Assembly (NCBI GenBank): GCA_014750165.1 | Contig: GCA_014750165.1_4319.1 | DNA from: a phage | Length of the DNA stretch: 45,917 nucleotides | Direction: 5' to 3' (one strand) | Shown here: piece after piece, positions 14,045 through 44,639 of the stretch | Position numbering within the stretch: the first letter of the stretch is position 1 | Layout: each line of letters opens with the position of its first letter | Position numbers and translations under genes: made by a program | Notes under the pieces: generated by a model | Seen by the model: the letters and a program-made list of their open reading frames with translations, nothing else | What the model was told of the DNA's origin: nothing | Databases searched by the model: none

Positions 14045-14065
14045 TTTAGCAATTAGTGCTATTCG
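14045..14065 (-). promoter_or_regulatory. gene-boundary palindrome cassette (minus orientation), upstream of cor-like gene
   Basis: Reverse complement reads GAATAGCACTAATTGCTAAA then CGCAAGG..TGCG hairpin, TACTAT, CATCGAAACGA; also supplies stop of the MTase-like gene. Confidence 0.5.
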
Positions 14066-14791: not shown

Positions 14792-14810
14792 TTTAGCAAT
14801 TCGTGCTATT
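14792..14810 (-). promoter_or_regulatory. gene-boundary palindrome cassette (minus orientation), upstream of MTase-like gene
   Basis: Reverse complement AAATAGCACGAATTGCTAAAG; downstream TGCGG-TATAAT-CGCCGCA inverted repeat; overlaps Rha gene stop. Confidence 0.5.
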
Positions 14811-15453
14811 TCTTTTCCAGCAGCAGCTTGATGTCAATGCCGAGATTATTCTCAATCAATCCGGTCAGCGCATCATTCTTTTCTTTAAGGGCGAAGCATT
14901 GGGCTTCATATTTAAATCTCTCCTCCATCTCATCCGATCGACTAACCCAACATTGTCTAGCCTCACAAGCCAGCATATCGAGCTTTTCATCGGTATTCTT
15001 ATCCATGAGTAAAATCTCATTTATTCTTTGCTCTGCAACAATTCGCTGGCTCAGGTGTGCATTTTGCGCATTAGCCACACCAAGCATCATTCGAGCCTCT
15101 TTTAACTCATCAATGCTTACCATCTGGCTGATTACTTCTGCTTGCTTTTTAACTAATGCCTCCAGCTCATGAAGTCGACGGATTACTTTGTGTCGAAGCA
15201 CGACACTGTAGCCAGTGATTAGCGTTTCAGTGAGTTCCTTGTTGAGTAAAATCTCAGATGTATAGCCTCGATTGTCTGTAAGTAGTTGATAATCATCATG
15301 CCCCAAATCTGGGGCATCGTTATAATGTAACAATTCATTGATCATTTCCTTTGTGTCGCGAACGACGTGATCATGACGTTTGCCGGTTAACTCTGCGATT
15401 TCCTTTGTGCTCATCATGGTTTTTGGTTGTTCTTTGTACGCTTTAATGTTCAT
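14806..15453 (-). CDS. Rha-family phage regulatory protein
   Basis: STKEIAELTGKRHDHVVRDTKEM matches Rha-domain signature; start set at internal ATG 15453 (MNIKAYKEQ...) rather than track start 15534. Confidence 0.55.
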   Translation of the reverse strand: MNIKAYKEQPKTMMSTKEIAELTGKRHDHVVRDTKEMINELLHYNDAPDLGHDDYQLLTDNRGYTSEILLNKELTETLITGYSVVLRHKVIRRLHELEALVKKQAEVISQMVSIDELKEARMMLGVANAQNAHLSQRIVAEQRINEILLMDKNTDEKLDMLACEARQCWVSRSDEMEERFKYEAQCFALKEKNDALTGLIENNLGIDIKLLLEKK

Positions 15454-15548
15454 TTTAATCTCTCTATATGTTTTGACTTCGAAAATTTCGTATTCAAGCA
15501 GCACCATTGCCGCCATGAGCCTAAATATACCCAAAGATACCCAGTTGT

Positions 15549-15570: not shown

Positions 15571-15664
15571 TAGCCAATTTCACCATAAATCACGGTTACA
15601 CGTAACCGATGTAACTCGATGTATACAATCTCATCCGCGGAAAATGATATACGCGCTGTTACGC

Positions 15665-15935
15665 CAATTTACGCAACAGTTACATTAAAATATCTATATA
15701 TATCAACCTTTTACTCTTATTATTATTATTATATATATTACTGTGTATATCATGTAACTACTTCTATAGAGTGTTCCGGTTATAATTTTAATATCATGTG
15801 ATTTTATACAGTATTGCACGGCAGCTATACCAATGCACCATCAGCAATAAATGATATACACGATATACACGCCGGTTACATTGAGCTATAGCTGGGCTTA
15901 GATGCCAAAAAACGTAACTAATGGCAATACCTACA
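15665..15935. repeat. AT-rich intergenic repeat copy A with (TTA)n tract
   Basis: Left arm ~95 bp and right arm ~50 bp closely similar by eye to 35041..35295; contains TTATTATTATTATTATATATATTACTGTGTATATCATGTAAC; strand-switch region. Confidence 0.6.
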
Positions 15936-16252
15936 CGGAATTACAAGGATTCACGCGTAAACTTAAATCAACGATTGGCAAAACCAATTGGACTGGCTAC
16001 GGTGACGAATATATAGTTAACCCATCGAAAGCAAGCAACCAGAGAGATATAGAAATGGTAAAGAAGATAGATTTGTACTCAGCTCACACCGTAATACTGC
16101 CTAGCTATGCTCCGGTTTTTATTGGTGTAACTTACGAAATAGCTCTTAAATTATGCGAGTCATCATATGGTAAAGACTGGAAAAATAAATCAATTAGAAT
16201 AGAAAAGACAACTAAAGAGCATATCGAAATCATCGTGGGGTTGCAAAAATGA
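15902..16252 (+). CDS. hypothetical early protein
   Basis: First gene after repeat A; 116 aa; no recognisable motif. Confidence 0.4.
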   Translation: MPKNVTNGNTYTELQGFTRKLKSTIGKTNWTGYGDEYIVNPSKASNQRDIEMVKKIDLYSAHTVILPSYAPVFIGVTYEIALKLCESSYGKDWKNKSIRIEKTTKEHIEIIVGLQK

Positions 16253-21279: not shown

Positions 21280-21325
21280 TTGGATTGTAGCATCTTTCAG
21301 GTATAAAAAAACCTCCCGAAGGAGG

Positions 21326-22307: not shown

Positions 22308-22781
22308 TTACCCTTTAGCTTTTCGTGCTGCCTCGTTAGCGGCCTTAATCTTGCGCCATGATCGACACTCTGGCTTGGTGGCTAACTCAGCCTCAGTAAC
22401 CACGCGTAGCATGTGACGCTTTTTGCACCGGAGTGTCAGTGGCTTGCCGTTACCGTCAAATTGCAGGTCTGGTCGGCAGAATGTAGCACGAAAACCCTCT
22501 CCGTTTCGTTTGTAGTAGTTGTGCGACAGTTGAGCACCGCGCGCAGAAATCATACCACGCTTAAACCATTCTTCTACAGCCTGCGGAGTTACCTTTAACT
22601 TCTTTGCAATATTCGCCTTTGTGACGAAGAAATCAAGGAGCATCTCAAGCCGCGCGCGTAGCCCGGCTCTTACTTCATCTTTTAAAACGTAGTAGCCTGA
22701 AGGTCGTTTACGTTGTTTTTTGTCTTCAGTGCGGATAGTTCCGTTATTACCGTTAGTGGTTCGCTTGTCAACTGCATTCAT
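22308..22781 (-). CDS. HTH DNA-binding protein (putative transcriptional regulator)
   Basis: Basic N-terminus and helix-turn-helix-like segment KKLKVTPQAVEEWFKRGMIS; divergent from helicase gene. Confidence 0.5.
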   Translation of the reverse strand: MNAVDKRTTNGNNGTIRTEDKKQRKRPSGYYVLKDEVRAGLRARLEMLLDFFVTKANIAKKLKVTPQAVEEWFKRGMISARGAQLSHNYYKRNGEGFRATFCRPDLQFDGNGKPLTLRCKKRHMLRVVTEAELATKPECRSWRKIKAANEAARKAKG

Positions 22782-25308: not shown

Positions 25309-25370
25309 TCGATTTTAAAAGATGTTGTATAGTTACTTCATAGAAACGAAACACATAGAGAGATAAAGAA

Positions 25371-31382: not shown

Positions 31383-32966
31383 TCACCCCAGCAGTCGTGG
31401 ATTAATGTAAACTTTATCACCAATCAGGCAAGTATAGTTTTTCTCATCAAGCATTGGCAGTAAGTGATCTTTAATCTTCGTCATTACTCCAGCCTGAGCC
31501 TCGAATGGCTTAACCTTGCGAGCAGCTTCATACAATGAACGAATACCAACTACGCCCTTCCCGTTTTTCCCTTGCTTGATCAGGATATCAATCAGCTTAT
31601 TCATCTCGGCATTGTCGCCAGCGTGACCAGCTGCGCTGGCAGATGACAGGTAAGTCTTGCTTAGTTCCTGGAACATGATTACAGCTTCTTGCATGGTATC
31701 AAGTTCAATCTCTCTGGATTTCTGCGGACTCCCACCGTTAGGGTTGAACCAGTTACGAACAGCATGAAGAACGGCTGCAATCCTGATGGCCTGTTTATCG
31801 AACTTGCCCAGGGCACCACGTAACATTGTGTGTGAATACTTCCCGCCATCAGCAAGGTGAGGTTCCATTTCTTGGCGCGCTCGGTTGAGGTACTTCATCG
31901 CTGAGTTGCTTACTGTCAGCTTAACATCTTGCTCATTCATTATCTCATGAACTAAGCGGAAGTAATCAGCCTTTAGTCCACCATCAATTGGCTCGTAAGT
32001 TGAGTCTCCATTCTCATCAACAAATACACGCTCGCCCAGGAATGATTTTTCACGTACAAGCAGAAAACGCTCAGATACACCGATACCACGCGCACCGGCA
32101 TTCATGATTGCATTGATTGTTTCGTCTTGCGCAATTACAGAGATGCAACCCAAAGCAACGAAGCTCATGTTGTTCTCTGCGTTAGCACGCGCAATAGATA
32201 CGTTACCCGCATCCCATGCTTTAAGCACTAGTTCGCTGTTCGTTTTCTTTGAGCCATCACCATAGGTCATGCCAAGCAGTGAGTTCACGCTCGTTGCTTC
32301 ATCCGAGATTACAGCAAAGTTACCCTGACGGTTGTTTATTCGCGCAAGACCTTCCGGCGTGGTATCGGACACGGGGAAAACGATATCGCATAGCTTCTCG
32401 AGCTTCTCCTCTAACTCCTCTTTCTCCTCAAAAAGTGAGGCCATCTCTGATGGTGACTTTTCCTGTTTCATCTCTTTTGATAATGCAGACAGCTTTGCCA
32501 TAATCTTTTTACGCTCACGCTTTCGCACTTCATTCAGCCGCTCAGTCTCAGCAATCATTGGAGCAATTGAAAGTGAGTTAATTGCTGATTTACCTGTCGA
32601 TGGCGGCTGGCTTGTCACGACATAAAGCGAAGTTGGCTGCTGAGTTCCGTGATACTCAACAGTGAATCGACCAAGCATTGCAGCGGAAATACACCCCAGG
32701 AAGTGCATATATGCGGACGACTCAGGAAACTGAACAGAACGAGCAATATTGGCTGACAGCTTACCAACAACATCAATATCATTGCCTAGTGAGATTACAG
32801 GGTACTTGTCATTAGCCGCATCAATCTCTACAGGTGCCTTCCAGAATGATTGAGACTGGCGATAGCCATTGGCATTAATAGCCACGCGCAGGGGTGGGAG
32901 GTTGTCTGCGGCTGCAATTGCCATAACCTGTTCAACAGATAGCTTATCTTCGTTGAAATCAAACAT
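31383..32966 (-). CDS. putative replication ATPase (primase C-terminal DUF3987-like P-loop domain)
   Basis: Deviant Walker A TSQPPSTGKSA and Walker B FAVISDEAT; 527 aa; family assignment from motif recall only. Confidence 0.45.
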   Translation of the reverse strand: MFDFNEDKLSVEQVMAIAAADNLPPLRVAINANGYRQSQSFWKAPVEIDAANDKYPVISLGNDIDVVGKLSANIARSVQFPESSAYMHFLGCISAAMLGRFTVEYHGTQQPTSLYVVTSQPPSTGKSAINSLSIAPMIAETERLNEVRKRERKKIMAKLSALSKEMKQEKSPSEMASLFEEKEELEEKLEKLCDIVFPVSDTTPEGLARINNRQGNFAVISDEATSVNSLLGMTYGDGSKKTNSELVLKAWDAGNVSIARANAENNMSFVALGCISVIAQDETINAIMNAGARGIGVSERFLLVREKSFLGERVFVDENGDSTYEPIDGGLKADYFRLVHEIMNEQDVKLTVSNSAMKYLNRARQEMEPHLADGGKYSHTMLRGALGKFDKQAIRIAAVLHAVRNWFNPNGGSPQKSREIELDTMQEAVIMFQELSKTYLSSASAAGHAGDNAEMNKLIDILIKQGKNGKGVVGIRSLYEAARKVKPFEAQAGVMTKIKDHLLPMLDEKNYTCLIGDKVYINPRLLG

Positions 32967-34043: not shown

Positions 34044-34535
34044 CTACCTCATTCCGCTGTTCTTGTGGTATTTCGCATTAACCTCAGCAACAATCCTCGC
34101 CTCGCAAGCACAGATAAAGTCTATGAATGTTCCTAAACATACAATTTTCCCATCTATGCTAATTCTTGCCGACCACTTACCTCTAACATCCATGTTCACA
34201 CCAGTTACCCCTGGCTTTCTTCTTACATACCTTTTGAGATTCTTATGATTTTCCATGTGGCTAACTAGCCTTAAGTTTTCAATCCTATTATCAGACCTAT
34301 CTCCATTAATGTGGTCGATCTGCATTCCTTTTGGTATATCTCCGTTGTGAATAATCCAGACCGCTCGATGGCAATAAATTAGCTTATTCTTAACCCTAAA
34401 TGCCTTGTATCCATGGCTATGCATGCAGCCAGCCTCGTCACCAACTTTTACTTGGGATGAGTTATACTTTCTGTAAAGTTTCCCATCCTTATACTCTACG
34501 GCGTTTACAATATCCTCAACTAGAATGGCACACAT
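34044..34535 (-). CDS. HNH homing endonuclease
   Basis: HNH core QIDHINGDRSDNRIENLR; paralog of 7483 and 27993 genes. Confidence 0.8.
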   Translation of the reverse strand: MCAILVEDIVNAVEYKDGKLYRKYNSSQVKVGDEAGCMHSHGYKAFRVKNKLIYCHRAVWIIHNGDIPKGMQIDHINGDRSDNRIENLRLVSHMENHKNLKRYVRRKPGVTGVNMDVRGKWSARISIDGKIVCLGTFIDFICACEARIVAEVNAKYHKNSGMR

Positions 34536-34696
34536 GATTCACACCCCCAATCCCCACAACAGAAATCTTCATCCTCTGACTGGAATTGCTTAGCCAAATC
34601 AATATCCAACTTTCCGCGGACAACAATTTCGGTGTAATCTTCGTTAAGTCCGATCAGCGCGCATTCGTGGCGTAACTCGTCTTTATCAATCTTCAT
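34520..34696 (-). CDS. hypothetical small Cys-rich protein (58 aa)
   Basis: MKIDKDELRHECALIG...FCCGDWGCESCVPF; ends 16 nt inside HNH start; cassette upstream; approx coords. Confidence 0.3.
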   Translation of the reverse strand: MKIDKDELRHECALIGLNEDYTEIVVRGKLDIDLAKQFQSEDEDFCCGDWGCESCVPF

Positions 34697-34748
34697 ATCT
34701 ATCTCCTCGTTTTGATGAGTTAACTATATCCTCCATGACCCCCAATGT

Positions 34749-34770
34749 CTTTGGCAAAAAGTGCTATTCG
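34749..34770 (-). promoter_or_regulatory. gene-boundary palindrome cassette, variant (minus orientation)
   Basis: Reverse complement CGAATAGCACTTTTTGCCAAAG then TATAGT and CATCAAAACGA. Confidence 0.4.
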
Positions 34771-35040
34771 TTAGATTTATTGATTGTTGCATATATTGCA
34801 ATGATTATCATGACTATTGCACATATGGCAATATTGCTTCAGATGCAATGATGTTTTTGATTGTTGCGAAAAGTGAAATGAAGTGGTGAGTGAGTGAATG
34901 AAAGATGGATGGACTACCATACAAGTTGATTTTTATTCTTGCTGAGCCATTTTCACGCATACGCGTTATAAAAGTTATGCCTTGTGGATGATGCCACCCT
35001 CCGCAGTAATCGTGCACGCCTATAACGCTGAATTACGCAA

Positions 35041-35295
35041 TGGTTACACTATAATATCTATATATAACAACCATTTAGTATAATTATTATTATTATATAT
35101 ATTACTATGTATATCATGTAACCACGCATCCGGCGGGGGTCGATAGTTTTTCTATGAAAATGACATTTTCTATATATATAAGGATAGGCATATACCCTCC
35201 CCGATTTCCGCGGAAATCCATACACAGGCAAATTACATACGCTATAGCTGGGCTGAGGTAGCAAAAAGCGTAACCGGGGCCAATATAAACACGAA
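35041..35295. repeat. AT-rich intergenic repeat copy B with (TTA)n tract and relic gene start
   Basis: Arms match 15665..15935; right arm retains an ATG-less in-frame relic (GTAGCAAAAAGCGTAACCGGGGCCAATATAAAC) of the 15902 gene start. Confidence 0.6.
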
Positions 35296-35372
35296 ATAAC
35301 ACTTGATAACGTGTATATGTGTGTTATTATGGATTCATCTTAACGAAGGGCAACCAATCAGGAGTAATGAAT

Positions 35373-35891
35373 ATGTCAGAACATAAAGAAGCAGTAAGTC
35401 TCGGTGAGGTGGTTCGTTACATGGCTGGCCAGGCTTTGGCTAGCGATAATAAATCATTTGCGGTTCCATTGCGCATGATCGTACAGCAAGTGTATGGACT
35501 TGATAAAGTGGATATGATGAGGGTGTACGAAGAGGACCTTACGCCTGGTGGTAAGTATCATCTCAAGAAGCTGAAGGCATCATACGTTTCAAACACAGTA
35601 AGCCGCATGCCTGAAATCAAAGCTGCTAACGTCCGGTCCATGTTCTCACTGAAGGACATGGAGTTTAATGAGGAGGAAGTTCGATGTGCGGTAATCTCAC
35701 TTGTGCCAGGCGCTATCAATACCGGGTCGCGTAACAAAGCAGAAGCAGAGAAGGAGGCGGCTATCATTGAAAAATTCAAGAAGCGACTCTTATCCGTTAC
35801 GCCAAGCGTCATTCACTTGAAAGGTGAGGAGCTTCAGGGTGCAATGTTCGCACTGTCCGCATACCAGGAACTTATTAAGGAGACAAAGTAA
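35373..35891 (+). CDS. hypothetical early protein
   Basis: Start at MSEHKEAV after AGGAG; first gene after repeat B. Confidence 0.45.
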   Translation: MSEHKEAVSLGEVVRYMAGQALASDNKSFAVPLRMIVQQVYGLDKVDMMRVYEEDLTPGGKYHLKKLKASYVSNTVSRMPEIKAANVRSMFSLKDMEFNEEEVRCAVISLVPGAINTGSRNKAEAEKEAAIIEKFKKRLLSVTPSVIHLKGEELQGAMFALSAYQELIKETK

Positions 35892-44528: not shown

Positions 44529-44639
44529 TAATTAAGATATATAAAGCCTCCTTCGGGAGGTTTTTTTATACCATTGCGTGGGCTAAAAACTCGTGTATAA
44601 TGAATCCGTAGACACCTAACTGAAAAGGAACAATAAAGA

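Follow-up and report, generated by a model that had tools for sequence, protein, structure and literature searches.

A conserved field of dyad-symmetric and directional repeats in the intergenic gap of a T1-like phage, a candidate packaging-initiation region

A field of repeated, putatively protein-binding motifs occupies the large non-coding gap between the divergent gene blocks of a T1-like phage and, tentatively, giving it slightly less than an even chance, we read this field as the conserved core of the region in which packaging is initiated (pac). The core idea of the original prediction, a field of such motifs in non-coding DNA, is upheld, and the field is conserved over three subfamilies; for this array a packaging or regulatory platform is a more likely role than the replication origin also proposed there. 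Its parts, namely the four dyads, the strand-biased GATT repeats and the purine tract, are precise, conserved and mutable candidate cis-elements, and they sit where the genomes of three relatives are made to begin, so that pac recognition in this family is directly testable. T1 is a classical coliphage, yet its pac site and origin are undefined at the sequence level. Already published are the location of pac somewhere in this gap, the gp3-like nature of the small terminase TerS and the existence of 21-nt repeats, whereas the papers searched make no mention of the four-dyad array, of a family-wide directional GATT field or of the identity of the 21-nt repeats as marboxes. The TLS paper of 2024 found no iteron-like repeats in TLS and listed the 21-nt repeats as an open question (PMC11447400).

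The window, by which we mean the whole stretch of 45,917 nucleotides analysed, is of complete-genome size and comes from an Rtp/T1-like siphophage of the Drexlerviridae (Braunvirinae-like), with phage vB_Ec-G8 as the nearest DNA match (∼91%) and ∼130 related records. The repeat field lies within a 677-bp non-coding gap (34697-35373). The block to its left, transcribed leftward, ends with gene 34520-34696 (minus strand) and contains an HNH endonuclease and, in an operon with replication genes, a DUF3987 helicase (31383-32966); a DUF7174 gene at 35373 opens the rightward block, which continues to terS (39047) and terL (39572). Fold comparison of DUF7174 gave no informative match. A large gap between the same flanking genes is also found in Braunvirinae, Rogunavirinae, Nouzillyvirus, T1 and TLS.

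Dyad sites, direct repeats and their conservation

The field contains four 15-bp dyad sites of the form TTGC-N7-GCAA with centre spacings of 30, 17 and 30 bp. Three are perfect, u1 at 34787-34801 (TTGCATATATTGCAA), u2 at 34817-34831 (TTGCACATATGGCAA) and u3 at 34834-34848 (TTGCTTCAGATGCAA), the last keeping its half-sites around a spacer that is variable among relatives; u4 at 34864-34878 (TTGCGAAAAGTGAAA) is a one-mismatch copy, degenerate in the source phage (GAAA). Three perfect dyads in 62 bp compare with 0.027 expected for the whole of 34741-35020, and none of 2000 dinucleotide-preserving shuffles of this region reached three. The whole window holds only five perfect copies (1.56 expected), and in an unbiased scan of all palindromes with arms of 4-6 nt and spacers of 2-10 nt the array was the sole cluster in 45.9 kb; the same scan recovered a homologous palindrome cluster in phage JulesPiccard. 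The repeat motifs quoted in the original prediction are all present, at coordinates slightly off its approximate ones: TTGATTGTTGC at 34780-34790 and 34858-34868, TGCAATGAT at 34797-34805 and 34844-34852, and GAGTGAGTGAATGAAAGATGGATGG inside a 46-nt C-free run (34868-34913). Its repeated-word measures proved only modestly above chance, since 53, 42 and 32 of the 2000 shuffles reach the values observed for the longest repeat (11 nt), the 8-mers and the 9-mers, respectively. Repeated motifs in non-coding DNA do extend over 34741-35020, which had been taken as one field, but the leftmost ∼30 bp are a promoter element that recurs genome-wide.

Sites for the host factors Fur, FNR, CRP, DnaA, IHF, Fis, NtrC and the LacI family were compared with the units informally, by eye, and none fits. 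One of the two perfect TTGC-N7-GCAA sites outside the array occurs at 39117-39131 (TTGCCATGGTGGCAA), in the 5′ part of terS, the part of the gene in which P22 has its pac site. This site may have arisen by chance, since 1.56 are expected genome-wide.

The dyads are interspersed with one-strand direct repeats, (A)TGATT(G/T). On the plus strand, TGATTG is found at 34781-34786 and 34858-34863, and TGATTA, within TGCAATGAT and 21 bp from the first TGATTG, at 34802-34807. Both TTGATTGTTGC and TGCAATGAT contain the GATT motif, and the full unit is therefore GATTG-TTGC-N7-GCAA-TGATT, a dyad core with direct GATT flanks. GATT outnumbers AATC by 5:0 in the source-phage field; summed over eight lineages, including the dyad-less TLS and Samwise, the 220 bp that adjoin the leftward marbox-like element (described below) on its right side contain 54 copies on the plus strand versus 5 on the minus strand. 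ATGATT is the sole 6-mer common to all eight lineages compared. The density of (T)GATT peaks genome-wide at this region in T1, TLS and JulesPiccard, and in the source phage the region is in the top 0.4-1.3%, not at the genome maximum. Abutting the array is a purine-rich tract of 46 nt without C (34868-34913, plus strand; GTGAGTGAGTGAATGAAAGATGGATGG), and only two C-free runs of such length exist genome-wide. The TLS counterpart of this tract, GAGTAGTGAGTGAGTAG, comes after a run of GATT repeats.

When 18 distinct relatives are aligned, no other non-coding block of the gap is as well conserved as 34746-34880, which has zero indels, and in distant relatives the DNA match is confined to it; conservation of the array spans three subfamilies. 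Identity over the 18 relatives is 97% in the half-sites, 84% in the 7-nt spacers, 87% in inter-unit DNA and 70-79% in the flanks, the spacers of u3 and u4 varying freely. Eight of the 18 sequences have u4 in its intact form (GCAA). In AHS24 perfect symmetry has gone from all four units, one half-site being lost in each, and the array is absent from TLS and Samwise. TLS (NC_009540) carries a tandem palindrome, TAGACC-N4-GGTCTA at 49791-49806 and again at 49805-49820, which is the only palindrome cluster of its 49.9-kb genome and lies just upstream of the last leftward marbox, ∼85-110 bp before the mapped pac and record start; its relative position is the same as that of the TTGC-N7-GCAA array. 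A genome-wide search of Samwise for clustered palindromes found none.

Relation to the packaging start of T1-like phages

By alignment, the field is homologous to the places where the genomes of three relatives are made to begin, the record starts of T1, TLS and SU57 all falling within ∼150 bp of it. The T1 RefSeq record, with a 2800-bp terminal repeat annotated from position 1, starts inside the motif homologous to 34781-34786 (GTGATT/GTTGC, where the slash marks the record start; position 1 reads GTGATT/GTTGCATGGTGTGCAAC), and the T1 copies of TTGC-N7-GCAA lie at positions 2 and 32, with a spacing of 30 bp, and at 165. For TLS, restriction mapping put the first packaging cut at the record start (AGATTTTGTGATTG...), and the exact pac base was picked by its likeness to the P22 pac site, the P22 sequence being GAAGATTTATCTGAAGTCGTTA and the TLS assignment resting on 'AGATTT' (PMC11447400). 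The record start of SU57, a close relative, aligns to ∼34936, at TTGATTTTTAT (34927-34937, plus strand). Its authors set that start where read coverage changes abruptly, and they state that the pac of T1-like phages is situated in this untranslated region (PMC7718038). The GenBank records of Rtp, OzMSK and Rogue1 are linearised within or adjoining u2 (34817-34831).

At 34773-34780 on the plus strand, the source phage has AGATTTAT, identical to the 8-nt P22 pac core and the motif by which the TLS authors assigned pac; GATTTA within this stretch is kept in 17 of 18 relatives. Its TerS matches the Pfam family GP3_package at 49.6 bits (cut-off 29.4) and so belongs to the P22 gp3 family. The directional recognition motifs to be expected of a pac region are thus found here, in the GATT bias (5:0 in this phage, 54:5 over eight lineages) and in AGATTTAT, together with a TerS of the GP3_package type. 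A packaging start is the only reading with positional evidence tied to experiment, indirect and coarse as that evidence is, and it also explains the family-wide directional repeats. It is weakened, however, by several observations. Among the three relatives' starts only that of TLS is experimentally mapped, to restriction-fragment resolution, and the three are scattered over ∼150 bp. Dyad symmetry is commoner for dimeric HTH regulators than for ring-shaped small terminases, the likeness to P22 amounts to 8 nt only, and GATT density here, though high, is below the genome maximum. Moreover, TLS and Samwise have pac placed here yet are without TTGC-N7-GCAA, so that the dyads are not required family-wide, and AHS24 has perfect symmetry in none of its four units. 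Contig break points in 43 near-identical assemblies (MK9072xx) were left out of the evidence as confounded: six of these points fall near the region, but there are clusters of them in other places too, and genomes of the same sequence are apt to break at the same positions.

If the field does initiate packaging, the small terminase (39047-39553, P22 gp3 family) would recognise the directional GATT-type repeats on concatemeric DNA, and the dyad cores would either form part of small-terminase recognition or be bound by a second dimeric phage protein. The DNA would be wrapped or bent, the large terminase would make its first cut within roughly 34786-34940, and headful packaging would proceed rightward, toward terS and the structural genes. 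Both the identity of the binding protein and the actual cut position in the source phage are what we infer here. Known terminase recognition regions are arrays of several sites, as in lambda cosB, SPP1 pacL/pacR and P1 pac. Like lambda cosB R1-R3, the SPP1 pacL/pacR boxes and the P1 pac hexamers, the field would be a non-coding cluster of directional repeats beside the first cut; with P22 pac it has AGATTTAT in common, and the source phage has a TerS of the P22 gp3 family. Unlike the lambda, SPP1, P1 and P22 sites, it lies 4.2 kb upstream of terS and not inside or beside it, and it contains four 15-bp dyad cores, which none of those sites has in this form.

Operator, origin and coding alternatives

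On the evidence weighed for each reading, we place a packaging start ahead of operators, operators ahead of an origin and an origin ahead of a gene or RNA; the remaining probability goes to host-factor binding or structural DNA. That the four TTGC-N7-GCAA sites are operators for a dimeric phage HTH protein is possible, if doubtful. The most obvious ligand would be a Cro-like core protein of 157 aa (22308-22781, minus strand) encoded between the primase and helicase genes, which by occupying the sites would tune the neighbouring leftward promoter or stop transcription from crossing the gap, in an early-to-late switch. Such a role accounts for the dyad symmetry: dyad sites of 14-18 bp in at least two copies are expected of Cro/CI-type operators, and here a 15-bp site recurs four times between divergent gene blocks, its half-sites 97% conserved against the freely varying spacers of u3 and u4. 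Multiple dyad sites between divergent transcription units are likewise a feature of the lambdoid Cro/CI operators (OR1-3) and of controller-protein C-boxes, and the source phage, too, encodes a Cro-fold protein. TLS, which has another unique tandem palindrome (TAGACC-N4-GGTCTA twice) at the same place, has K in the presumed recognition helix of the regulator, where T1 and the source phage have Q. Between the source phage and AHS24 the regulator is 83% identical and TerS 63%, and by this comparison the regulator would seem to follow the conserved array somewhat better than TerS does; the two proteins are about equally diverged among subfamilies, each being ∼50% identical among the source phage, T1 and TLS.

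The operator reading finds less support, however, in promoter overlap and co-occurrence. The sites are clear of any conserved core promoter, since the conserved leftward promoter is located outside the array and the sole sigma-70-like match within it (34831-34804, minus strand), good as it is, is specific to the source phage, its -10 not being conserved in relatives. When the array was compared with the Cro-like regulator and with TerS for signs of joint variation, the Q/K difference in the recognition helix of the regulator seemed promising, but it broke down in Samwise, whose regulator is of the Q type and whose genome holds no clustered palindrome. AHS24 retains the regulator despite its degenerate dyads, and Cro-fold proteins also occur in TLS, Samwise and AHS24, none of which has intact sites, so that co-occurrence would speak against the reading. 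The regulator belongs to the core genes of these phages whether or not they carry the array, so something else must be its main target. Unlike OR1-3 and the C-boxes, the array sites are off conserved -35/-10 hexamers and belong to a virulent phage, with the regulator gene 12 kb distant and found also in relatives that lack the sites. A clustered operator region had been one of the two original suggestions; its dyad-symmetric sites and a Cro-like HTH protein are there, the overlap with a conserved core promoter is not. Possible, though unlikely, is a lineage-specific pad on which a dimeric phage protein would license or mark the packaging start, the array then not being the terminase site, coupled to a leftward class II marbox promoter like ∼20 others.

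The other original suggestion, iterons with an unwinding element, would make the field a lambda-type replication origin with four initiator-binding sites, a strand-asymmetric tract and AT-rich DNA, which we consider improbable. The layout of dyads, C-free tract and AT-rich DNA recalls lambda ori, which has four dyad-symmetric sites of 15-19 bp, an adjacent strand-asymmetric tract and AT-rich DNA nearby. In the source phage the four TTGC-N7-GCAA sites provide the at least three repeated putative initiator-binding sites of an iteron array and are followed by the 46-nt C-free tract and then by TATA-rich DNA from ∼35050; the leftward operon carries replication genes, including the DUF3987 helicase (31383-32966), and T1-like phages have no established origin. 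Unlike lambda ori, the field is not in or beside an initiator gene, no protein of the O/Rep/RepA type being found among the neighbouring or replication genes scanned, and the 30/17/30 spacing is irregular. Over 140 bp separate the AT-rich block from the field, and the block recurs at 15656-15761 with no array beside it; the dyads are missing in TLS and Samwise, whereas an origin should be universal, and GC skew only tracks the direction of transcription. The case for an origin would thus be one of architectural resemblance only: the likeness noted in the original prediction stands, with no initiator in the scanned genes and with the supposed unwinding element, repeat B, ∼140 bp distant and duplicated.

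Repeat B itself (35020-35125) is 85% identical to 15656-15761 over 106 nt, and a second duplicated segment pairs 35241-35301 with 15885-15945 (61 nt, 75%). The second copies lie in another divergent intergenic region, beside a Rha-like gene (14806-15534, minus strand). In T1, TLS and Samwise, too, TATA-rich runs are found on the right of the GATT field, at a distance of 200-300 bp, and these runs and repeat B may serve as early promoters or as unwinding elements.

That a small gene or a small RNA spans the array is very improbable. The ORF at 34735-34851 (plus strand) is open in the source phage and has homologues annotated in EC3a and AHS24, beyond codon 4 most relatives keep its frame free of stops, and some GenBank records annotate a 'membrane protein' of 38-40 aa over the array (L003 1675-1791; NC_024784 41973-42092). 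However, only 3 of 18 relatives possess the ATG, four have in-frame stops near the start, and substitutions show no third-position excess matching the frame. The frame is open only because the DNA is conserved, the start codon not being conserved, and the annotation is probably spurious. The other three candidate frames are interrupted by stops in many relatives; none of the four ORFs, translated in 18 relatives, combines a conserved start with a frame that stays open in every one, which agrees with the absence of convincing coding potential claimed from the start. The search for a structured RNA gave nothing in Rfam at E<=1, and on both strands the folding energy was no better than that of shuffled controls (z-scores -1.05 and +0.46).

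The leftward promoter and the marbox-like repeats

Five nucleotides before the field begins lies a marbox-like 19-mer, ATAGCACTTTTTGCCAAAG (34749-34767, minus strand), which matches AYNGCACNNWNNRYYAAAY with one mismatch. This is a separate promoter element, one of ∼20 genome-wide copies of a 21-nt repeat, and not part of the array: scored with a PWM built from the other 19 copies it reaches 25.7 bits, rank 15 of ∼92,000 positions, and 34746-34775 is 94% conserved in 18 relatives. The array units, tried as marboxes, scored at best 5.4 bits versus 21.8-31.6 for 20 family members, and they and the marbox have only GCA-N5-TGC in common. The leftward promoter of gene 34520-34696 (minus strand) has its -10 hexamer, TATAGT in minus-strand sequence, at 34723-34728; this begins 39 nt after marbox position 1, and a conserved leader, RBS and ATG then follow. 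In 13 of 17 sister promoters the same distance comes to 38 nt, as it does in E. coli micF, a standard class II promoter of the MarA/SoxS/Rob regulon in which we measured the offset on NC_000913.3. The other copies of the repeat have their first bases at 2341, 7413, 17413, 21262, 22794, 25290, 25581, 27920, 28482, 29570, 36199, 36832, 37967 and 41140 and at 14062, 14809, 15567, 33040 and 33655 on the minus strand, where the copy described here starts at 34767.

The 21-nt repeats have been described for TLS, T1, Rtp and Rogue1, with their function declared unknown (PMC11447400). The binding consensus of MarA/SoxS/Rob is AYnGCACnnWnnRYYAAAY (PMC3709825), and the ChIP-derived one is GCAHWWWWTGYYAAA (PMC6900184); the repeats fit both. 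At no more than one mismatch the consensus has 17 matches genome-wide versus 1.01 expected, a number that none of 100 shuffles reached, and T1, TLS, Samwise, AHS24 and JulesPiccard have 9-21 exact matches each to the 18-nt consensus (final Y omitted). Judged by its sequence, its forward orientation with -35 overlap and its spacing, 34749-34767 would qualify as a class II marbox. It is like the MarA/SoxS/Rob class II promoters such as micF in having a forward consensus marbox 38-39 nt before the -10, and unlike chromosomal marboxes in being carried by a virulent phage, in ∼20 copies and far nearer the consensus than most. An alternative is that a phage protein, instead of MarA/SoxS/Rob, binds the partial dyad TAGCA-N5-TGCTA in the 21-nt repeats.

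The literature searched contains no paper that connects marboxes with T1-like phages. If the repeats are marboxes, most transcription of T1-like phages would run via the host stress regulators MarA/SoxS/Rob, and the question of the purpose of the 21-nt repeats, published in 2024, would be answered. The match predicts a dependence of phage transcription on host factors, which could bear on phage resistance, on laboratory contamination by T1-like phages and on phage engineering.

At most of the ∼20 marbox promoters a conserved leader, CATCGAAACGA(A/G), lies after the -10 and before the RBS (for example 25335-25350, 36877-36892 and 41185-41200), and it could be a start-site or leader signal. A strong sigma-70-like promoter without a marbox is found at 35303-35330 (plus strand; TTGATA-16-TATTAT with TG extension, 10 of 12 matches), directly upstream of the DUF7174 gene, and is likely a rightward early promoter. 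Elsewhere in the window, GGTATAAAAAAACCTCCCGAAGGAGG at 21300-21325 and its reverse complement at 44547-44572 form a perfect 26-nt inverted repeat pair, 23 kb apart, which looks like one terminator-type hairpin reused in opposite orientation.
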